In this document: positions 2,141-52,820 of the stretch, piece after piece
Position numbering within the stretch: the first letter of the stretch is position 1
Layout: each line of letters starts with the position of its first letter
Assembly: GCA_024683975.1 (NCBI GenBank)
Contig: JAIKXR010000124.1
Span: 1 to 61,767, forward strand
Direction of reading: 5' to 3'
DNA length: 61,767 nucleotides
DNA from: Paludibacteraceae bacterium
GTDB taxonomy: Bacteria; Bacteroidota; Bacteroidia; Bacteroidales; Paludibacteraceae
Notes under the pieces: generated by a model
The model's input: the letters and a program-made list of their open reading frames with translations, nothing else
Databases searched by the model: none
Told to the model about the DNA's origin: nothing
Translations under genes and position numbers: made by a program

Positions 2141-5100
2141 TTAGTTGAGGTGCTGATCTTGGATGGTGTAGATAGAGCCTTGGATGGTGTAGCGGATGCC
2201 GTTGCGCTCGATGTAGAGAATGCCTTTCTCGATGAACTTGCGGCAGTCGTCTGTAGTCTGAATGCCGGTCTCGTAGAGGGCAGTCGGCTCTTTCTTTTCG
2301 TATTGTGCTGTAACGGTGAGGTCGGCAGTCACATGGGTGTAGTCAATGTCCCAGCCTTTGAAGGTGTAACCTTCCACAGCGGGTGCTTCAGGTGCGACAG
2401 CGTCTGCGCCGTGCTCCACTACTTGCGGGGTTCCGATAGTGTTGCCCTCTTTGTCAAGGAAAGTAACAGTGTATTGTTTGATGACGAACCATGCAGTAAC
2501 GAGAGTATCCGTAGTGACGACAAGTCCTGTTTCGGGGTCGTATTTATCCCAATGGTCGAAGGTGTAACCTTCATCGGGTGTTGCTGTAAGGTGTAGGACA
2601 GCCTCATCGGGTACCGCCGTAAGATTGATACCATCCTCTTCTACCGTTATCGTTCCGTTCTCGGCAGTGAGGGTGACTTGGAAAGTAAAGTTGCCCGTGA
2701 AGTATCCGGGGATACCTTTCCTATCGGGGCGAGCATATTCCGCATCCCTATATGCAAAGTCATAGGCCGTTCCTTTTCCTCCAGTCAGAGCGTTACAGTC
2801 AAGGAACATATCGTCCGATAAGTCGGGTGTCCAAGTTCCATTGCAGTAGATAGCAGTTAGTGCTTCGCAGCCGGAAAACATGGCAGTCATATTTTCCACT
2901 TTATCCGTATTGAAGTTGTTCAAGTCAAGCGTTTTGAGAGTTGCGCAGGCAACAAACATTCCATTCATATTCTCCACATTAGCCGTATTGAAGTTCTTCA
3001 AGTCAAGCGTTTTGAGTGCTGCGCAACCGGCAAACATATAGGTCATATTGGTTACTTGAGCCGTATTCAAATAGTCCAAATGTTCTATTTCTTCGAGTGC
3101 TTCAAACATTGCGAACCAATAGTAAGTTGCGATGGGTTGTGCTTCTTTCATAGAGACATCGAAAACGACTTTCCGTATAGCGGTTATCTGTTGTGCCGTT
3201 TCAGGTAACTCAATCTCAGAAACACCAAATAGGCTGCTCCATTCGGTCATTACTCCTGGTCTGGTTCCTTTCTGTGTGTCGTAATAGAGTGTCATAGTTT
3301 TTTCGTCCTCAGACAGAGCGGCATAAATCCCTCTAACAGGAGTGAAGTATCCCGGTTTGCTTTTTTCGTCGGGACGTGCGTAATCCGCATTCGTATGTGC
3401 ATCGTCATAAGCAGTTCCGTTTCCTCCCACAAGACTTGTACAGTCAAGGAACATATCGTCGGAGTCATCCGGTGTCCAAGTGTCATTGCAATAGATGGTG
3501 GTGAGTGCAGTACAACCGGTAAACATTCCTTCCATATCCGACACCCCAAACGTAATGAAACGACTCAGGTCAAGCGTTTTGAGTGCTGTGCAACCGGCAA
3601 ACATAAGGGTCATAGTGGTTACTTTAGCGGTATTGAAGCTGCTGAGGTCAAGACTTTGTAGTGCGGCGCAAGCGGAAAACATTCCTTCCATAAGTTCCAC
3701 GTTAGCGGTATTGAAGCGACTGAGGTCAAGACTTTGTAGTGCGGCGCATCCGTAAAACATTCCACTCATATCGGTCACGTTCTCCGTATTGAAGTTGCTC
3801 ATGTCCAGTTTCATGAGTGAGCTGCAACCGTAGAACATTGAATTCATATTGGTCACGTTCTCCGTATTGAAGTTGCTCAGGTCAAGAGTTTGCAGATCTT
3901 CGCATGAACCAAACATTCCATTCATATTCTCCACGTTTGCCGTATTGAAGTTGCTCAAGTCAAGAGTTTGCAGCCCCATGCACCCCATAAACATTGCGGC
4001 CATATTGGTCACGTTCTCCGTACTGAAGTTGCTGGGGTCAAGACTTTGGATACTTGCGCAAGCGGCAAACATCTCAGCCATATCGGTTACGTTAGCCGTA
4101 TTGAAGTTGCTTATGTCCAATTTTTTGAGGAGGTTGCAACCGGTAAACATTCCTGCCATATTGGTCACATTAGCCGTATTGAAGTTGCTTATGTTAAGAC
4201 TAAAAAGGTTGTTACACTCACTAAACATTTCTGCCATATTGGTCACATTAGCCGTATTGAAGTTGCTCAGGTCCAGTTTCACGAGTGACTCGCAATTGTT
4301 GAACATTTTATTCATATCGGTCACGTTATCCGTACTGAAGCCGCTTAAATCTAAATTATTGACGTTTTTACAGCGATAAAACATTTCAGCCATATTGGTT
4401 ACTTCCGTAGTGTTCAGATAGTTTAAGTTCTCGATTTTATCTAAATCCTCCATATCATAGAACCATCTGTAAGTGGAGGTCGGTCTTGCCTCTTTCATAG
4501 AGGCATCTACTATTACGTTTGTGATATCCCTATCGCAATATGAAGCTCCATCGGTTATATTCCATAATTTAAGAATCTTGTGTGACGCTTTGTTTTCATC
4601 GTAATAGAGCGTCATTGTCTTTCCGTCCTCGGAGCGCGCGGCATAAATCTCTTTTTTTTCGGTGAAGTATCCTTTATTATCTTCTCTGTCAGGTCTTGCG
4701 TAAAGGATATTCGTATGTGCATCGTCATATACCGTTCCGTTTCCGCCTTTCAGACTTGTACAGTTGGCGAACATGTCATCGGAAGAGTCAGAAGACCATT
4801 TGTCATTACAATAAATAGTGGTGAGTGCCGTGCAGTCGGAAAACATTCCCATCATAACGTCCACATAATTCGGAAAGACGTTGCACATATCCAGCGTTTG
4901 AAGGCTTTTGCAACCGTAAAACATACCGGTCGTATTTTCCACGTGTCCAGCAAAGAAGGTACTTAGGTCAAGACTTTGGAGGCTTGTGCAGAAAGCAAAC
5001 ATACCGTTCATAGCGGTAGCAGAAGCCGTATTCAGGTAGTCCAGATGCTCGAACTCCACCACCCCTTCCATTCGGTAGAACCATTGTTTGGTCGTGGTGA

Positions 5101-5365
5101 GTTTTGCCTCTTTCATTGACTCGTGCAATACGACTTTTTCTATATCCGCCAACTCGGCGGCAAAACTGCCGCTGTAATCAGCATCGGATGCTCCGTCCGT
5201 TTCATTCCACTCGTCCAAGACATTGTCCCTCGCTGCTTTCATTTCATCGTAATAGAGGGTCATCGTCTTTCCTCCATCGGACAAAACGGCGTAGATTTCC
5301 TGTGCACGTGCCACGTTCACAACGAGCATGGTCAGTGCGAACAAAAAGAATAGTTTTTTCTTCAT
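2141..5365 (-). CDS. Large BspA-type leucine-rich-repeat surface protein with C-terminal Listeria-Bacteroides repeat domains
   Basis: 1074-aa ORF with signal peptide MKKKLFFLFALTMLVVNVARAQ. It has dozens of 23-aa LDLSNFNTANVTNM..MF..C..L units and three paralogous modules beginning IYA.LS.D.KTMTLYYD. The C-terminus carries YTVTFLDKEGN...GYTFKGWD repeats. Confidence 0.88.
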   Translation of the reverse strand: MKKKLFFLFALTMLVVNVARAQEIYAVLSDGGKTMTLYYDEMKAARDNVLDEWNETDGASDADYSGSFAAELADIEKVVLHESMKEAKLTTTKQWFYRMEGVVEFEHLDYLNTASATAMNGMFAFCTSLQSLDLSTFFAGHVENTTGMFYGCKSLQTLDMCNVFPNYVDVMMGMFSDCTALTTIYCNDKWSSDSSDDMFANCTSLKGGNGTVYDDAHTNILYARPDREDNKGYFTEKKEIYAARSEDGKTMTLYYDENKASHKILKLWNITDGASYCDRDITNVIVDASMKEARPTSTYRWFYDMEDLDKIENLNYLNTTEVTNMAEMFYRCKNVNNLDLSGFSTDNVTDMNKMFNNCESLVKLDLSNFNTANVTNMAEMFSECNNLFSLNISNFNTANVTNMAGMFTGCNLLKKLDISNFNTANVTDMAEMFAACASIQSLDPSNFSTENVTNMAAMFMGCMGLQTLDLSNFNTANVENMNGMFGSCEDLQTLDLSNFNTENVTNMNSMFYGCSSLMKLDMSNFNTENVTDMSGMFYGCAALQSLDLSRFNTANVELMEGMFSACAALQSLDLSSFNTAKVTTMTLMFAGCTALKTLDLSRFITFGVSDMEGMFTGCTALTTIYCNDTWTPDDSDDMFLDCTSLVGGNGTAYDDAHTNADYARPDEKSKPGYFTPVRGIYAALSEDEKTMTLYYDTQKGTRPGVMTEWSSLFGVSEIELPETAQQITAIRKVVFDVSMKEAQPIATYYWFAMFEALEEIEHLDYLNTAQVTNMTYMFAGCAALKTLDLKNFNTANVENMNGMFVACATLKTLDLNNFNTDKVENMTAMFSGCEALTAIYCNGTWTPDLSDDMFLDCNALTGGKGTAYDFAYRDAEYARPDRKGIPGYFTGNFTFQVTLTAENGTITVEEDGINLTAVPDEAVLHLTATPDEGYTFDHWDKYDPETGLVVTTDTLVTAWFVIKQYTVTFLDKEGNTIGTPQVVEHGADAVAPEAPAVEGYTFKGWDIDYTHVTADLTVTAQYEKKEPTALYETGIQTTDDCRKFIEKGILYIERNGIRYTIQGSIYTIQDQHLN

Positions 5366-9304: not shown

Positions 9305-10287
9305 CATTCCATTCACCCGAATACTTATTTCTGCTGCTGTTTCTGATACCGATAACCGGCTGGTATATATGGCATTTGCACGATGCACACGCCACCCTGA
9401 GGATGAGCGACACAAGCGAGTTGGCAGGTCAGCCCAAGCCGCTACGGGTATGGCTGATACACGTTCCTTTTGCATTGCGGGTGCTGACCGTGACGATGTT
9501 GTCAATATCGTTGGCGCGTCCCCAGTTGAGCAACCGCTGGCAGTCGGAATCGACAGAAGGTATAGACATAATGATGGCTATAGACGTGTCAGGAACGATG
9601 CTGGCGGAGGACTTGCGCCCCAACCGATTGGAGGCAGCCAAAGAGGTGGCGACCAACTTTGTGCTCAACCGTCCAAACGACAACATAGGCTTGGTTGTGT
9701 TTGCCGGCGAAAGTTTCACCCAATGTCCCCTGACGACCGACCATGCGGTGTTGGTCAATCTGTTCGGGGCAGTCAAGTTCGGCCTGATAGAGGACGGCAC
9801 GGCGATAGGTCTGGGTTTGGCAAACTGCGTAAACAGGATGAAAGATTCGCCAACCAAATCGAAGGTGATCATACTGCTGACAGACGGAAGCAACAACAGA
9901 GGCGAGATAACCCCCCAGACGGCAGCGGAGATAGCCAAGACATACGGCATAAGAGTGTATGCAGTAGGCGTAGGCTCTTACGGTCAAGCCCGTGTGCCTG
10001 TGCAGACACCTTACGGGACGCAATATATGACTATGGACAGTGAGTTTGACGAGGGTACACTGCAAAGCATAGCGAAGGCGACCGGCGGGGAATATTTCAG
10101 AGCCACCAACAACGCAAGCCTTCACAAGATATACGAGCAGATAGACCAATTGGAGAAGTCGAAAATAAGAGTAAGAGAGTATTCGAAACGTTATGAGAAC
10201 TTTATGCCGTTCCTGTATGCGGCTCTGGCCTGCCTGATTCTGGATATACTGTTAAGACATTTTGTATTACGAACGATAGCTGAATAA
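9301..10287 (+). CDS. batA: BatA, vWA-domain membrane protein (aerotolerance operon)
   Basis: N-terminal TM helices followed by a vWA MIDAS motif (DIMMAIDVSGTM). It has a C-terminal TM helix and the operon context fits. Confidence 0.85.
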   Translation: MTFHSPEYLFLLLFLIPITGWYIWHLHDAHATLRMSDTSELAGQPKPLRVWLIHVPFALRVLTVTMLSISLARPQLSNRWQSESTEGIDIMMAIDVSGTMLAEDLRPNRLEAAKEVATNFVLNRPNDNIGLVVFAGESFTQCPLTTDHAVLVNLFGAVKFGLIEDGTAIGLGLANCVNRMKDSPTKSKVIILLTDGSNNRGEITPQTAAEIAKTYGIRVYAVGVGSYGQARVPVQTPYGTQYMTMDSEFDEGTLQSIAKATGGEYFRATNNASLHKIYEQIDQLEKSKIRVREYSKRYENFMPFLYAALACLILDILLRHFVLRTIAE

Positions 10288-47337: not shown

Positions 47338-50300
47338 ATGTTCTTTCAAAACTCCATCCTGAAGAAATACCTCGCCATGCTCAATGATGAGCAGGTCAAG
47401 GCGGCATGGGAGCAATACCAGGCTTTGTTCCTGAATCAGACCAGGCAGGACAACATCCTTACCTCGAAAGAGGAGCAGTACCAGGAAGGTTTCCTGCGCG
47501 AGTTGTTTGTCAAGACGCTGGGTTATACCATCAACCCCGACCCCGACTTCAATCTCATTACCGAGAAGAAGAACGAGACAGACTCCAAGAAGGCGGACGG
47601 AGCCATCCAGCGTGACGGCAAAGTGATTGGCATCATCGAACTCAAAGACCATAAAACGCCGGACTTGAAGCAGGTGGAGACACAGGCATTCGGCTACAAG
47701 AACCGGCATCGTGGCACGCGGTATGTGGTCATCTCCAATTTTGAGAAACTGCGTTTCTATATTGATGACGCGACAGAATACATGGAGTGGGATTTGTTCT
47801 CGCTCAAAGAAGAGGATTTCCGTGAACTCTTTTTCTGCCTGTCATGGGACACGCTCAGCCAGGATCTGCCGATTAAAGCCAAGACGGAGAGCGTCAGCAG
47901 CGAGGACCAGATAACGCAGCAGCTCTATCGCGACTATTCCGCTTTCAAGCGTGAACTGTTTGCCGACATCCTCAAGAACAACACCACGGACGAGACACCC
48001 AAAGAGCAGATACTCCTCCTTTTCAAAAAGACACAGAAACTCCTTGACCGCCTGCTGTTCATCTTCTTTGCCGAGGACAGCGGACTGCTGCCGCCCAATT
48101 CGATGGTCCTGATTTTAGACGACTGGCAGAAACTCAAGGATATGGACGAGTACCGGCCGCTATACAGCCGCATACGGAAGTACTTCGGCTATCTCGACAC
48201 GGGCTTTCAGGGGAAACATTACGAAATCTTCGCTTACAACGGCGGCTTGTTCAAACCCGACGAGGTATTAGACAGCATCACCATCAGCGATGAGGTGCTG
48301 GCTGCGCACTGCCGCCGTCTGTCGGACTACAACTACGCTTCCGAGGTCGATGTCAATATCCTCGGACACATCTTCGAGAACTCGCTCAACGAGATTGAGG
48401 AAGTCACAGCACAAATCAACAGGAGCGCAAGCGTCCCGCTTGCGAAAAATGAAGATGCGTCAAACAGCCGCGAGCGGGACGCTCACGCTCCCGGCAAACG
48501 CAAGCGCGACGGCGTGTTCTATACCCCGCAGTATATCACCAAATACATCGTTGAGAACACTGTCGGCCGCCTCTGCGCGGAGAAAAAAGCGGAACTGGGC
48601 GTAACCGGGAGCGCAAGCGTCCCGCTTGCGAAGAAGGCTGACAAACAAGCGCGCCTGGCAGTTCTTGAACGCTACCGTGAGTGGCTTAAAGGAATCACCA
48701 TCTGCGACCCTGCCTGCGGTTCGGGTGCATTCCTCAATGCCGCGCTCCGTTTCCTGATGGATGAGCACAAACTGCTTGATGAGATGGAAGCGAAAGTGGC
48801 TGGAGCCAGTATCGTCTTCCAGAATGTGGAAAACGCCATTTTGGAGAACAACCTCTTTGGCGTGGATATCAACGAGGAGAGTGTGGAGATAGCGAAACTG
48901 GCTTTGTGGCTCCGTACCGCCAAGCCGCACCGCAAACTGAGTTCGCTTAATGATAACATTAAATGCGGTAACTCTCTTATTAACGACCCGGAAATCGCAA
49001 GAGAAAAAGCCTTCAACTGGCAGGCCGAGTTCCCGGATGTCTTCAAGAGCGCGAGCGTCCCGCTCGCGACAAATATGTCAACAGTCATGAGCGACCAACG
49101 CGAGCGGGACGCTCACGCTCCTGTTAAGCCATGGCATAGCAGACACTACGTGCCGCATATTGAGGACAAAAAATTCCAGTTTGTCACTTTCCGCTTATAC
49201 GACAGTATGCCAAAGGATATTATAGACAAATGGAAGGAAGAATTAAAGATTACTGACGAAGAGAAAACACCTGTTCCGATTTTAACCCGATTGTTAGAAC
49301 GAATAAACAAATTTGAGGATACAGGATATGGTCAGTGCTTCTTACGTGATGAACGGATAGCCAAGCTGGTGGAGGATGCTTTACTGCGTTTTGACGGTCA
49401 ACAATACAGATTGTTAAGGTGGTGCATTATGCCCAATCATGTACACGTTCTTATTGAAGTGTTACCAAACAACAGTCTGACTGCTATTATGCACTCATGG
49501 CGTTCCTATACAGCACATGAAGCAAACAAGATTTTAGAACGTACAGGAGAGTTTTGGCAAAAAGAGTATTTTGACCGTTATATACGTAATGCCCAGCATT
49601 TCCGTGATACGGTGGATTATATCGATAATAACCCTGTTAATGCAGGACTGGTTGCCACACCTGAAGATTGGCAGTGGTGTACCAGGAGCGCGAGCGTCCC
49701 GCTCGCGACAAGTGAGACGACTAACACTAACGACCTTCGCAAGCGAGACGCTTGCGCTCCTGAAGACCAACGCGAGCGGGACGCTCACGCTCCTGAAGAC
49801 CTTCGCAAGCGAGACGCTTGCGCTCCCGGCTTCGACATCGTAATCGGCAATCCGCCGTATGTGAATATGGTCAATATACTTGACGAGAACCAACGCAAGT
49901 ATTACCAAAAGAACTACAAGACTGTCAAGAACAAGTCGGATTTATATTCCATCTTTACCGAGAAGTCCGCACAACTCCTTAAACCCAACGGAAAATTCGG
50001 ATTTATCTTCTCCAACAGTTGGATGGGGACAGAGAGTTTCTCCACTTTCAGAGAGTTCCTTGCACATGATGTGAAAGTGACCAAACTGGTGGAATTGCCG
50101 CCAGGTGTCTTTTCGGATGCGACAGTGACTACCGTCCTGTGTTTTTACGAGAACACCAAACCGAAGGAAACAGATATCATTGAAATAGAGACATACAAAG
50201 ACGGGCAGTTTATTCCCAAAGGCTTTTTCCTTCCCTATAAGCAGGTACTGGAGAACCCCAATACTTCATTCTCATTTGAGAAGACAATAGAACTGAACAA

Positions 50301-51198
50301 AGTGCCGACAATCGAGTTGGGAGATATTGTCTCTTTCTCTTTGGGTATTAAGACGAGCGATGACAAGCGGTTTGTATTTGAGGAGAAGAAAGACGATGAC
50401 TGCCATTTGTTTTTGAGAGGCAGAAATATAAAAAGATGGAACACTCCGGAGAATAACGAGTGGTTGTGGTATAAACCGGAACTCATCTGCGAGAAACCCG
50501 GCGGCAGACCACGGATATTTGAAAACTTTGTAGTTGATAAGAAGATTGTAATCCAAGATATTGCTGCTGAAATAATAGCGACATTGGATTGTAATAAATA
50601 TCTGTGTAATGACACATTGAATATCATATTTGACATTGACAGAAAATATGATTTTGAATATATTTTGGTTCTGTTAAACTCTAAATTGGTAAATACTTGG
50701 TTCAAGAAAGTCTATCCAGCTGGATTACATATAAAAACCAATCAACTGGAAACAATTCCTATACCTGTTATATCTGCTGCCGACCAACAGCCCTTTATAG
50801 ACCATGCTGACCGGATGTTGTCTTTGAACAAAGACTTACAAGAGAAGCGTGCGCGGTTCCTGCGGAGACTGCAGGACAACATCAGGAGCGCGAGCGTCAC
50901 GCTCGCGGCAAACACAGACAACAATCGCGAGCGGGACGCTCACGCTCCTGTGCGTATCACCGCCGCGTTTGAGACCTTCGAAACCCTTGATTTTGCAGGC
51001 TTTGTTGCCGAACTCAAAAAGCAGAAGATCCAACTCTCCCTTGTGCAACAGGACGAGTGGGAGGACTATTTCACCCGATACAAATCTGATTGCAACGCCT
51101 TGACTGCAACAATCGCAGAGACAGACAAAGAGATTGACGCTCTTGTCTATGCCCTCTACGGTCTTACAGACGATGAAATAAAGTTGATAGAGCAATAA
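47338..51198 (+). CDS. Type IIG restriction-modification enzyme (Eco57I/MmeI-like nuclease + gamma-class N6-adenine methyltransferase + TRD) with in-frame REP and RAYT insertions
   Basis: N-terminal PD-(D/E)xK-like KADGAI...VIGIIELKD. MTase motifs are GVFYTPQYI, ICDPACGSGAFL, NLFGVDINEESVEIAKLALWL and VIGNPPYV (NPPY at 49849-49860). The C-terminus is TaqI-like (LGDIVSFSLGIKTSDDKRF). It is one uninterrupted 1286-aa frame. Confidence 0.85.
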   Translation: MFFQNSILKKYLAMLNDEQVKAAWEQYQALFLNQTRQDNILTSKEEQYQEGFLRELFVKTLGYTINPDPDFNLITEKKNETDSKKADGAIQRDGKVIGIIELKDHKTPDLKQVETQAFGYKNRHRGTRYVVISNFEKLRFYIDDATEYMEWDLFSLKEEDFRELFFCLSWDTLSQDLPIKAKTESVSSEDQITQQLYRDYSAFKRELFADILKNNTTDETPKEQILLLFKKTQKLLDRLLFIFFAEDSGLLPPNSMVLILDDWQKLKDMDEYRPLYSRIRKYFGYLDTGFQGKHYEIFAYNGGLFKPDEVLDSITISDEVLAAHCRRLSDYNYASEVDVNILGHIFENSLNEIEEVTAQINRSASVPLAKNEDASNSRERDAHAPGKRKRDGVFYTPQYITKYIVENTVGRLCAEKKAELGVTGSASVPLAKKADKQARLAVLERYREWLKGITICDPACGSGAFLNAALRFLMDEHKLLDEMEAKVAGASIVFQNVENAILENNLFGVDINEESVEIAKLALWLRTAKPHRKLSSLNDNIKCGNSLINDPEIAREKAFNWQAEFPDVFKSASVPLATNMSTVMSDQRERDAHAPVKPWHSRHYVPHIEDKKFQFVTFRLYDSMPKDIIDKWKEELKITDEEKTPVPILTRLLERINKFEDTGYGQCFLRDERIAKLVEDALLRFDGQQYRLLRWCIMPNHVHVLIEVLPNNSLTAIMHSWRSYTAHEANKILERTGEFWQKEYFDRYIRNAQHFRDTVDYIDNNPVNAGLVATPEDWQWCTRSASVPLATSETTNTNDLRKRDACAPEDQRERDAHAPEDLRKRDACAPGFDIVIGNPPYVNMVNILDENQRKYYQKNYKTVKNKSDLYSIFTEKSAQLLKPNGKFGFIFSNSWMGTESFSTFREFLAHDVKVTKLVELPPGVFSDATVTTVLCFYENTKPKETDIIEIETYKDGQFIPKGFFLPYKQVLENPNTSFSFEKTIELNKVPTIELGDIVSFSLGIKTSDDKRFVFEEKKDDDCHLFLRGRNIKRWNTPENNEWLWYKPELICEKPGGRPRIFENFVVDKKIVIQDIAAEIIATLDCNKYLCNDTLNIIFDIDRKYDFEYILVLLNSKLVNTWFKKVYPAGLHIKTNQLETIPIPVISAADQQPFIDHADRMLSLNKDLQEKRARFLRRLQDNIRSASVTLAANTDNNRERDAHAPVRITAAFETFETLDFAGFVAELKKQKIQLSLVQQDEWEDYFTRYKSDCNALTATIAETDKEIDALVYALYGLTDDEIKLIEQ
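48422..48491. repeat. REP inverted doublet 1 (forward 48422-48444, reverse 48469-48491)
   Basis: GGAGCGCAAGCGTCCCGCTTGCG / CGCGAGCGGGACGCTCACGCTCC with a 24-nt spacer. It translates as SASVPLA...RERDAHAP. Confidence 0.9.
48608..48630 (+). repeat. Solo REP unit
   Basis: GGAGCGCAAGCGTCCCGCTTGCG, identical to the forward unit of doublet 1. No inverted partner was seen. Confidence 0.85.
49046..49121. repeat. REP inverted doublet flanking the RAYT on the left (forward 49046-49068, reverse 49099-49121)
   Basis: AGAGCGCGAGCGTCCCGCTCGCG / CGCGAGCGGGACGCTCACGCTCC with a 30-nt spacer. The spacer contains in-frame ATGs at 49075 and 49087. Confidence 0.9.
49123..49683 (+). mobile_element. REP-associated tyrosine transposase (RAYT / TnpA-REP, IS200-IS605 Y1 HUH family) domain embedded in the RM ORF
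   Basis: RHYVPHIEDKKFQFVTFRL..., the HUH motif in IMPNHVHVLI (49438-49449), Tyr in SWRSYTAHEANK (49507-49509), and FWQKEYFDRYIRN..TVDYIDNNPVNAGLV..PEDWQWC. It resembles E. coli RayT/YafM-type proteins, judged from memory. It has no stop codon of its own. Confidence 0.8.
49685..49826. repeat. REP cluster right of the RAYT: one forward unit (49685-49707) plus three reverse units (49738-49760, 49771-49793, 49804-49826)
   Basis: The reverse units form three tandem 33-nt (11-codon) repeats at 49728-49826. They alternate between variants CGCAAGCGAGACGCTTGCGCTCC and CGCGAGCGGGACGCTCACGCTCC. Confidence 0.9.
50885..50948. repeat. REP inverted doublet 5 (forward 50885-50907, reverse 50926-50948)
   Basis: GGAGCGCGAGCGTCACGCTCGCG / CGCGAGCGGGACGCTCACGCTCC with an 18-nt spacer. 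It translates as SASVTLA...RERDAHAP. Confidence 0.9.
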
Positions 51199-51461: not shown

Positions 51462-52820
51462 ATGGAAACAACTGAAAACCAAAGACCCACAATTGTACTT
51501 AATCGTATGTTTGCTGGTAAATATCTCTCCAATCATATCGGGCATGAGATAATTAATATGTTCAAGTCCGACAACGGACATAACTATATATACATTCAAC
51601 CGTATGGCACCTATGATGCCATACATTTTGGAGAGATAGGCTATGTGATGCTGGTTAGAGGTTTGGAGGGTAAGCGGGCGTTGGAAGTCCTCGGTATAGC
51701 CACAGATCTGAAAGATATTTATGACCCCAAGAATACAGATATTTATGACCCCAAGAATACAAAACAGTGGAAATTTACACAGGAACTAATTAAAAAACAA
51801 GAAATCACATACGGCGGTGTGCATTTAGATAAGATATTCGTTCATAAAGTAGGAGACAAAGATGCGCAAAGTGTATATATCACTTTTGAGGCGGGCAAGG
51901 TAATGCGTCCGAATAAGCCTCTGTATTTGGTGTATGGCGAAAAAGATACTATCTGCGATTCAAATGCAAAGGTGATACTTCTTCCGAATACCGGACAGGC
52001 AAAGTCTTCTTTGAAGCAGTATTTTACAAGTGATAATGAAGATTACAAAAAACTGCTTGATTTGATTAATGAAAAGGACTTATGGACTGTTGAAACAACC
52101 AAAGTGAATACTGAGAAATCGCTTGACATGAAGAAAGAAGACAATTTCTTTGATATTTGTGGAGTGGATGACTATGAGTTGGCTTTTTCTAATGCCTTCG
52201 CCTACTTTATGGATAAATATCCGGAACTGGTAGTAGAATTTGCAAAAGAAGTTCTTGCGAAAGAAAATATCAAGGTAACCGACAAACCATTCTACATCAT
52301 TGAGCGTGAAGTGAATAATGTGGATATTCTGTTGGAAAATGATGAAAAAGTGGTTGTGATAGAGAACAAAGTAACATCAAAAATAAATGGTGTTAAGGTC
52401 GTGGATAATAAAACAATCGGAACACAACTGGATAAGTATTACAGATACGCTTTGGAGCGTGCAAATGGAGAGGATAAAGAGAATAAGGGCAAAGGCCAAG
52501 TGAAAAGGAAACAAAACAAAGAAGTTGCTTGCTATATATTGACTCCCAATTACAACCCAATAGACCTTAGCAGTTATTTTATTCCAGGGTTCAATCCGGT
52601 AAATCATTACAAACAGATTTTTTATAAACAAGTTTATGATTTCCTTAAGAACAAGCATCCCGAAGACTGGTATTTTCAAGAATTTATAAAGGGTCTGGAG
52701 AAACACACAAAGGAACATCATAATGATTTGTTTGAAGATACTATGCAGAAGTTTGTCAAACAAATCAAAGTAAAGTCAAATGAGGATAAACAAGGGAGTA
52801 CGCCCGAAATTGGTGGATAA
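51462..52820 (+). CDS. PD-(D/E)xK nuclease-family protein with an uncharacterised ~210-aa N-terminal domain
   Basis: The C-terminal half (NFFDICGVDDYELAFSNAFAYFM ... VNNVDILLENDEKVVVIENKV ... QLDKYYRY) fits the D...E.K nuclease family common in defence islands, judged from memory. The N-terminal half has no motif I recognise. Confidence 0.6.
   Translation: METTENQRPTIVLNRMFAGKYLSNHIGHEIINMFKSDNGHNYIYIQPYGTYDAIHFGEIGYVMLVRGLEGKRALEVLGIATDLKDIYDPKNTDIYDPKNTKQWKFTQELIKKQEITYGGVHLDKIFVHKVGDKDAQSVYITFEAGKVMRPNKPLYLVYGEKDTICDSNAKVILLPNTGQAKSSLKQYFTSDNEDYKKLLDLINEKDLWTVETTKVNTEKSLDMKKEDNFFDICGVDDYELAFSNAFAYFMDKYPELVVEFAKEVLAKENIKVTDKPFYIIEREVNNVDILLENDEKVVVIENKVTSKINGVKVVDNKTIGTQLDKYYRYALERANGEDKENKGKGQVKRKQNKEVACYILTPNYNPIDLSSYFIPGFNPVNHYKQIFYKQVYDFLKNKHPEDWYFQEFIKGLEKHTKEHHNDLFEDTMQKFVKQIKVKSNEDKQGSTPEIGG

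Follow-up and report, generated by a model that had tools for sequence, protein, structure and literature searches.

Classical REP-associated tyrosine transposases (RAYTs) are stand-alone, single-copy, extragenic genes that are inherited vertically, and the associated repetitive extragenic palindromic (REP) sequences lie between genes across the chromosome. How did a RAYT and 11 REP hairpins come to lie within the reading frame of a restriction-modification (RM) gene, and what keeps that frame open? The question is raised by positions 47338 to 51198 of a 61,767-nucleotide (nt) contig from a Paludibacteraceae bacterium (JAIKXR010000124.1), the whole of which is called the window below. The gene at this place encodes a Type IIG restriction-methyltransferase and has a REPtron inside it, namely a RAYT together with its cognate REPs and inverted REP doublets (REPINs). 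No stop codon occurs in the RAYT or in any of the 11 REPs, and all of them are in frame. The features of the gene, numbered in window nucleotides and in amino acids (aa) of the product, are as follows.

47338-51198, + strand: host open reading frame (ORF), Type IIG restriction-methyltransferase (Eco57I/MmeI-like), 1286 aa, intact, with all inserts inside it (Pfam, NCBIfam, PADLOC, homologues).
47596-47646, + strand: PD-(D/E)xK nuclease motif D87...E101-L-K103, in invariant columns of the family alignment.
48422-48491, + strand: REP site 1, an inverted doublet (REPIN) in the variable loop between helical spacer and methyltransferase; folding energy (dG) -25.7 kcal/mol, z -5.4.
48608-48630, + strand: REP site 2, one forward REP on its own, in the loop preceding motif I (pattern search, folding).
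48706-48732, + strand: methyltransferase motif I, DPACGSGAF, aa 457 (alignment, motif search).
49046-49121, + strand: REP site 3, a REPIN doublet forming the left REPtron arm directly 5' of the RAYT; dG -29.6 kcal/mol, z -6.6; predicted local distance difference test (pLDDT) <50.
49123-49695, + strand: RAYT domain, aa 596-786, in frame and without its own stop codon (hidden Markov model (HMM), AlphaFold2, Foldseek, and nonsynonymous (pN) against synonymous (pS) differences).
49438-49446, + strand: HUH motif of the RAYT, H701-V-H703, aligned with the 4er8 motif.
49618-49620, + strand: catalytic Tyr of the RAYT, Y761, aligned with the 4er8 motif.
49685-49826, + strand: REP site 4, the right REPtron arm, made up of four REPs (one forward, three reverse); dG -52.9 kcal/mol, z -9.4; pLDDT <50.
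49828-50877, + strand: methyltransferase C-half and TaqI_C target-recognition domain (TRD), with NPPY at 49849-49860, aa 838 (Pfam, comparison with the homologue P0002).
50885-50948, + strand: REP site 5, a REPIN doublet that separates the TRD from the C-terminal helices (pattern search, folding).
50950-51198, + strand: C-terminal helical tail, 69-76% nt identity to P0002, synonymous divergence (dS) 1.17.

Nuclease, methyltransferase and TRD are encoded by the host as a single polypeptide. Pfam matches Eco57I, N6_Mtase, TaqI_C, MmeI_Mtase, MmeI_hel and Y1_Tnp (aa 688-765) were obtained, with weak HSDR_N/MmeI_N matches at the N-terminus, and PADLOC assigned REase_MTase_IIG with 755 bits. The gamma-class m6A motif order is kept, motif I (DPACGSGAF) preceding motif IV (NPPY) with the RAYT insert between them, and the catalytic motifs of nuclease, methyltransferase and TRD are all intact in the family alignment. 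Sequence-specific methylation and cleavage of DNA would be the putative activity of the product. An earlier note on this DNA, made from its letters alone, had described a single-chain Eco57I/MmeI-type ORF of 1286 aa with an intact frame, a PD-(D/E)xK motif, motif I, NPPY and a TaqI-like C-terminus, and each of these was found in place.

The REP is a 23-nt element, GGAG-CGCRAGCG-TCC-CGCTYGCG, laid out as GGAG-CGCGAGCG-TCC-CGCTCGCG, with a GGAG tag, an 8-bp GC-rich stem and a 3-nt loop. A search of the whole 61.8-kb window with GGAGCGCRAGCGTCCCGCTYGCG, allowing up to 3 mismatches and using dinucleotide shuffles as the null, returned 11 copies (5 forward, 6 reverse) with 0-1 mismatch each at five sites, all in the ORF, which reproduces exactly the count, orientations and sites of the earlier note. 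Its statement that the element does not recur in the rest of the window also held, no copy being found in the other 57.9 kb (shuffled expectation 0). If the sites were independent, the chance of all five falling in the ORF would be (0.0625)^5, or ~1e-6. Extragenic, chromosome-wide dispersal is thus not what the window shows, 11 of 11 copies lying in one ORF. The G/A and C/T differences among the copies are compensatory, inverted pairs are present at four of the five sites, and the REPIN-type hairpins fold with -26 to -53 kcal/mol (z -5 to -9). A database search placed the same 23-mer in many other phyla as well, and where GC content permits judgement its genomic sites are mostly short open stretches, i.e. 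extragenic.

Within the gene the REPs are read uniformly. All five forward copies are translated as SASVPLA and all six reverse copies as R[EK]RDA[HC]AP, one codon phase per orientation, and the REP-encoded linkers add up to ~95 aa of the host protein. Site 1 encodes SASVPLA...RERDAHAP where P0002 has an unrelated loop, and site 4 ends 2 codons before GFDIVIGNPPY. All six frames of the element are stop-free, so this uniform phase is not explained by stop avoidance. One phase per orientation was also seen in two further RM genes, L004 (4815-7539; 6/6 and 4/4), whose REPs likewise have no stops in six frames, and L138 (3786-6897; 7/7 forward).

The RAYT lies between methyltransferase motifs III and IV. 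An HMM search of this segment was positive, with NCBIfam NF047646 REP_Tyr_transpos at 86.8 bits against a curated cut-off of 80 (aa 667-781) beside the Pfam Y1_Tnp match. Modelling of aa 560-840 with AlphaFold, for which 51 stand-alone RAYTs served as the basis, gave pLDDT 80-97 for the core (about aa 599-784) and <50 for both REP-coded flanks, so that disordered linkers are predicted for the peptides encoded by the REPs. The top Foldseek match of the model was 4ER8 (E = 2e-8), the Escherichia coli RAYT (TnpA-REP) in complex with a REP hairpin, with IS608, ISDra2 and IS200 TnpA next in rank, and in a profile search H701-V-H703 and Y761 aligned with the HUH and Tyr motifs of 4er8. The ~187-aa Y1/HUH domain of RAYT type that the earlier note had proposed is therefore borne out by both profile and fold.

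Cognate REPs flank the domain in inverted orientation, as a REPIN upstream (49046-49121) and an array downstream (49685-49826). The RAYT is internal to the host ORF and is not a stand-alone, single-copy gene with its own start and stop; as it has no stop codon of its own, any translation of it continues into the host C-half. In-frame ATGs in the site-3 spacer (aa 581/585) are candidate starts and are not conserved in L138. The closest stand-alone RAYTs share 59-61% identity, are ~200 aa long and have their own flanking palindromes in the classical REPtron layout; none more than 61% identical was found in the metagenome scan described below. Two other kinds of element were considered and rejected. 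Assignment to IS200/IS605 fails on the NCBIfam transpos_IS200 score (28.1 bits against a cut-off of 55) and on the lack of a separate ORF, and an intein is not supported, as there is no Hint/intein Pfam match and the insert starts ...VFK-SASV and ends ...CAP-GFD, without splice-junction residues.

That the REPs and RAYT are insertions and not family features follows, at the level of sequence, from P0002 (1003 aa), the closest homologue, which is 93-99% identical in nt over most of the gene and has none of the five inserts. The alignment with uninterrupted homologues thus agrees with the earlier note, which had treated the five segments as insertions; its estimate of ~970 aa for the protein after their removal was slightly low, almost all homologues being 991-1005 aa. 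The RAYT with its flanking REP blocks is located between the conserved ...EFPxVF and GFDIVIGNPPY, and the remaining REPs occupy loops of variable length across the family. At several sites the inserts substitute for short loop sequences and are not pure additions. The empty sites of L138 and its RAYT-less relative P0114 are of this kind, the REPINs replacing 13-23 nt of loop DNA, and they were uninformative, no target-site or duplication signature being recovered from them. Two other RAYT-less alleles, P0041 and P0116, have different GC-rich peptide inserts in loops 1 and 2 (e.g. SPAPLAGRGLGGG), which may be orphan palindromic elements of other families.

Two further members of the same RM family, P0043 (1355 aa, from ENA) and L138 (from a JGI metagenome), carry a RAYT at the identical junction, FPxVF followed by GFDxVIGNPPY. 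Each has its own REP, GGAG-CGCAAGCA-CCxC-TGCTTGCG in P0043 and GGTA-CGCAAGTG-TCT-CACTTGCG in L138, and the stems co-vary with the RAYT (CGCGAGCG in the window, CGCAAGCA in P0043 and CGCAAGTG in L138), the changes being compensatory relative to the window REP. All REP copies of both alleles lie within the RM ORF, in overlapping loops and in one codon phase per orientation; the loop of window site 2, for example, holds L138's own REPIN. Between the window and P0043 the RAYT has pS 0.90 (saturated) and pN 0.13, comparable figures for the host N-terminal domains being pN 0.16-0.17, so the RAYT has long been under strong purifying selection in the host frame. The host N-terminus has dN/dS (nonsynonymous to synonymous divergence) 0.05 between the window and P0002. 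More than 30 REP copies have stayed in frame across the three alleles, those 3' of the RAYT among them, which points to the host C-terminal half being under selection too. A joint alignment of RM and RAYT sequences was dropped, as only ~47 of 200 RAYT residues fell in the right columns. In another member of the family, P0051 (L005 8106-11762), a different, weakly scoring Y1-like domain sits at the junction FPxxF|GGFD and is itself interrupted by an in-frame palindrome, CTTCGGGGCATGCCCCGAAG (10109-10226), encoding the peptide TSGHAPKS.

The distribution of the RAYT in this family is patchy. The nearest relative of each carrier is RAYT-less, at 97% identity for the window and P0002, 95% for L138 and P0114, and 85% for P0043 and P0038 (N-terminal 355 aa), and the carriers are mutually only 68-74% identical in the host-gene alignment. 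To produce such a pattern, the RAYT must have been gained at one site repeatedly or lost cleanly more than once. Comparison of the window with P0002 shows near-identical blocks (48720-48899 and 49827-50819; 0-3 mismatches per 60 nt) and divergent tracts (48420-48719, 48900-49079 and 50820 to the end), and the divergent tracts adjoin every REP site. Synonymous divergence is 0.27 at the N-terminus, 0.07 in the C-half, which is 98-99% identical in nt to P0002, and 1.17 in the tail. Similarity falls from just before REP site 5 through the gene end, and because the tail has only 69-76% nt identity to P0002 at this dS, we take its ancestry to differ from that of the adjacent C-half; it is no closer to P0043 than to P0002. 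A sharp shift in GC content inside the gene, from 51-53% in the N-half (47338-49040) to ~41% in the RAYT and C-half/TRD (49830-50880), is consistent with a mosaic origin of the C-half.

The other two carriers are mosaic too. Between L138 and P0114 identity is ~97% as far as the RAYT junction, REPINs in three loops excepted, then ~25% across the C-half/TRD and ~93% right after a three-REP cluster, and P0043 and P0038 show the same identity pattern. Patchy RAYT presence together with divergent tracts hugging the REP sites suggests that REP/RAYT-bearing segments pass between alleles by homologous recombination, in a process resembling homing with co-conversion. The location of REPs at the borders of an exchangeable C-half/TRD block is also suggestive of REP-promoted cassette exchange, a coincidence that is confounded by the retrieval of the alleles via their RAYT and by the conserved NPPY-coding DNA adjoining the junction. 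An HTH_3 gene (L204 2761-2985) lies directly 5' of the P0114 RM gene, and homology between L138 and L204 extends ~300 nt upstream only (about 2830-3130 in L138) and ends at the gene's end; from these limits the transferable unit seems to comprise the RM gene and a putative controller gene.

Embedding of this kind extends well beyond one enzyme family. Metagenome contigs were scanned with the RAYT domain alone, the 80 best loci were taken, and a RAYT was called embedded when its frame was open for at least 100 aa on both sides. By this measure 24 of the 80 best loci (~30%) are embedded, often with flanks open for 400-800 aa, so the arrangement in the window is not a one-off. At least 15 of the 24 hosts are DNA methyltransferases (eight DUF1156, six scanned N6_N4 plus one duplicate locus, and one Type IIG, L138); the others comprise one SNF2-NOV_C helicase, WYL proteins (two of them scanned, another three inferred because their geometry is identical; among these three, L148 and L154 also belong to the same RAYT clade) and two without assignment. 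HUH and Tyr are kept in all embedded RAYTs, and short repeats lie within the host ORF in 15 of 15 cases at L138, 27/27 at L150, 8/8 at L142 and 20/22 at L168, most informative loci being alike in this respect. In a rough neighbour-joining tree, without support values, embedded RAYTs cluster by host family.

An exhaustive HMMER search with a junction-spanning query likewise found many RAYTs within large proteins. According to Pfam these hosts include MmeI-type enzymes with the RAYT between methyltransferase and TRD, Eco57I-type enzymes with it upstream of the methyltransferase, DUF1156/D12 methylases, PriA, a DinG-like helicase, WYL-WCX and SpoU proteins, and a few terminal fusions. A fixed position of the RAYT just upstream of (N/D)PPY in every host was ruled out, the distances being ~55-440 aa and MmeI-type hosts carrying the RAYT downstream of NPPF. 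Fused forms are probably under-counted in the word-indexed protein search with the RAYT query, which missed long fusions (the 1286-aa protein itself and P0043). On this sequence evidence the window gene belongs to a broad class in which RAYTs lie in frame within genes for DNA methyltransferases and defence-type proteins.

Other RAYT fusions were encountered in these searches. WYL-RAYT(-WCX) proteins of ~540-580 aa (P0400-P0428; L145, L147, L148 and L154) are very abundant, forming dozens of clusters at 90%, one with 123 members, and some come from NCBI genomes. Also recurrent are HAD-hydrolase proteins of 440-504 aa in which the RAYT is C-terminal. Three stand-alone RAYTs (P0188, P0231 and P0234) are labelled 'putative DNA methylase' by JGI, which may be annotation transfer from methylase-RAYT fusions.

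The most probable reading is that the in-frame REPtron resides in mobile defence and methylase genes, is tolerated by its host and spreads between alleles. Of the three readings offered in the earlier note (a functional enzyme that tolerates the inserts, a chimera with a new activity and an excision switch), that of a host enzyme tolerating a passenger fits best, recast here as a selfish, nested REPtron; the analysis yielded no evidence for the other two. Translation would make the RAYT part of the host polypeptide, as an inner domain that separates methyltransferase motifs III and IV and is tethered by disordered, Ser/Ala/Pro/Arg/Asp-rich REP-encoded peptides, with satellite REPINs in other variable surface loops. 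The restriction-methyltransferase would remain functional, as only frame-keeping insertions in permissive loops would survive, and the element would rely on the expression signals of the host gene. It would travel with the horizontally mobile RM gene and move between alleles by homologous recombination, as in homing-like gene conversion, with no spread through the chromosome.

Several points weigh against this resident-passenger reading. Divergent tracts beside REPs could reflect relaxed loop constraint and not co-conversion, and the shared codon phase of the REP copies goes beyond simple selection against stops. The REPINs swap out loop DNA, so that clean insertion is not seen, and there is no transposition signature. 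The REP count covers the 61.8-kb contig, and copies elsewhere in the genome are possible. With 250 aa inserted into its Rossmann fold, between motifs III and IV, the methyltransferase could be crippled, and the AlphaFold model of aa 230-1286 (mean pLDDT 55, predicted template modelling score 0.39), set aside as too poor, cannot show that fold intact around the insert.

If the insert did cripple the fold, the RM enzyme would be dead and the frame would have stayed open through recency or through dependence of the RAYT on the host start. The position of the insert within the catalytic domain, between motifs III and IV, fits this; selection on the RAYT alone would keep the upstream part in frame, and since restriction and modification vanish together when a single-chain Type IIG enzyme is lost, such a loss is not lethal. 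However, the inserts 3' of the RAYT (sites 4 and 5) are in frame too, in three independent alleles with three REP families, the nuclease, methyltransferase and TRD motifs are all intact, and the C-half matches that of an uninterrupted allele at 98-99% identity. The same junction is moreover filled in alleles with synonymously saturated RAYTs, which implies a long-lasting open frame, and we judge a dead host distinctly improbable. A pseudogene reading was rejected on these grounds. It is very unlikely that the Y1/HUH domain has instead been recruited by the defence protein, for example to sense or cut the single-stranded or hairpin DNA of invaders. Such a role would suit the bias of embedded RAYTs to DNA methyltransferases, helicases (SNF2, PriA, DinG-like) and WYL proteins, the purifying selection on the RAYT and its invariably kept catalytic residues, but a cognate REP in the same gene that co-evolves with the RAYT is the hallmark of a RAYT/REP replicator and not of a repurposed effector, the nearest relatives of the hosts work without a RAYT, and the insertion positions vary among host families.

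A larger role for the element is conceivable, in which RAYT and REPs promote recombination at REP sites that swaps the methyltransferase C-half with the TRD and so diversifies specificity. In each of the three carriers REPs stand on both sides of the C-half/TRD block (sites 4 and 5), the fall and recovery of identity between L138 and P0114 (~97% to ~25% to ~93%) has REP-side borders, as it has between P0043 and P0038, dS in the window against P0002 passes from 0.27 in the N-terminus to 0.07 in the C-half and 1.17 past site 5, and the left breakpoint lies within the methyltransferase fold, off the classical domain border. Yet P0043 and L138 were found via their RAYT, which makes their differing TRDs partly a matter of ascertainment; TRD swaps are common in RM families without a RAYT, the left breakpoint may equally fall in the ultra-conserved GNPPYV-coding DNA right of the insert, and REPs and swap borders may coincide through a shared restriction to permissive loops. 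We regard exchange of this kind as unlikely, and find it no more likely that the RAYT, translated within the restriction enzyme, nicks the bracketing REP hairpins and thereby drives both homing into empty alleles and exchange of specificity cassettes. Were it true, RAYT-driven exchange would be a new, transposase-based diversification of RM and defence-methylase specificities, and would account for the concentration of the element in such genes. A reversible on/off switch of the RM gene by excision has in its favour that Y1 transposases of the IS200/IS605 type excise precisely and that uninterrupted alleles exist. P0002 differs from the window in the tracts flanking every insert, and so is not an excision product of the window allele, and no excision junctions were observed. 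Chimeric metagenome assembly, for its part, is contradicted by the same in-frame architecture in independent samples and assemblies (P0043 from ENA and L138 from JGI), and we give either a switch or an artefact hardly any credence.

Directly 3' of the RM gene is an ORF of 452 aa (51462-52820, + strand) with a weak PDDEXK_4 match below the cut-off and the PADLOC candidate label PDC-S26; together the two genes may form a small defence islet beside rpsF/rpsR and recN. Elsewhere in the window, an ORF at 2141-5365 (1074 aa) holds nine copies of AACTTCAATACGG (2905-4264, - strand) that belong to a 26-aa tandem repeat unrelated to the REPs; the copies are mostly 78 nt apart and form two runs, two at 2905-2995 and seven at 3784-4264.

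The RAYT/REP way of life seen here differs from that of the textbook, in that transposase and hairpin sites are written into the frame of a mobile defence gene. They are read as a domain plus linkers, are kept there over the long term, and are distributed patchily like a homing element. With about 30% of a metagenome sample drawn by RAYT alone (best 80 loci) embedded, mostly in DNA methyltransferases, the arrangement is common, and annotators should take fused 'methylase/transposase' ORFs as real. In mobile-element biology it suggests that an intein-like niche can be reached without protein splicing, and for the evolution of defence genes REP-bracketed specificity modules are now a directly testable idea.

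Set beside known systems, the window element has parts that are familiar and a combination that appears new. The REPtron, in which a RAYT (TnpA-REP) is flanked by REPs or REPINs, reportedly goes back to work by Nunvar in 2010, Bertels and Rainey in 2011, and Ton-Hoang and Messing in 2012, the last with PDB entry 4ER8. Like a classical REPtron, the window element has a Y1 transposase with HUH and Tyr and a 4ER8-like fold, REPs made of a 4-nt tag and a GC-rich hairpin, and inverted doublets flanking the RAYT, and every RAYT has its own co-varying REP. It differs in that the RAYT, lacking its own stop, is contained in the frame of another gene, which also holds all detectable REPs; reviews of RAYTs treat them as stand-alone genes. 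Elements of IS200/IS605 belong to the same transposase superfamily and share the logic of hairpin recognition, but their copies are autonomous, have their own ORF and normally disrupt the genes they enter. The host resembles Type IIG enzymes (Eco57I/MmeI; related to BREX PglX) in its PD-ExK nuclease, helical spacer, gamma-class m6A methyltransferase and TaqI-like TRD, and differs from those described, which are ~900-1100 aa long with a contiguous methyltransferase, in having that domain split by a 190-aa transposase. Inteins have a similar host range of methylases, helicases and PriA; they splice themselves from the protein, whereas the window insert has no Hint domain or splice-junction residues.

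The earlier note knew of no described example of its readings, and this needs qualification. In-frame intragenic REPs, biased to DNA-metabolism genes, and the palindromic elements (RPEs) of Rickettsia are documented (PMC3733652, Di Nocera et al. 2013). As in the window, these are short palindromes, often dimers, that add 20-30 aa in frame to a seemingly functional host. Only non-autonomous repeats are intragenic there, whereas the window has the transposase in frame too, and one gene alone carries 11 copies at five loops. For an in-frame RAYT in an RM or methylase gene no description was found in the literature, an absence that is not proof, and plasmid and phage collections held no annotated example of a host-RAYT junction. 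What appears to be new is thus the in-frame RAYT nested in a host gene, in-frame intragenic REPs being already known. The closest conceptual precedent is, in our assessment, ShiLan, which homes into a phage DNA methylase as a stop-free insertion, does not splice, and carries an HNH nuclease out of frame (PMC11855218). Both are in-frame, stop-free mobile inserts in a DNA-methylase gene, are patchy among close alleles and presumably loop out without destroying the host enzyme; in ShiLan the nuclease is out of frame, whereas here the RAYT is in the host frame and brings its own hairpin cis-sites with it.

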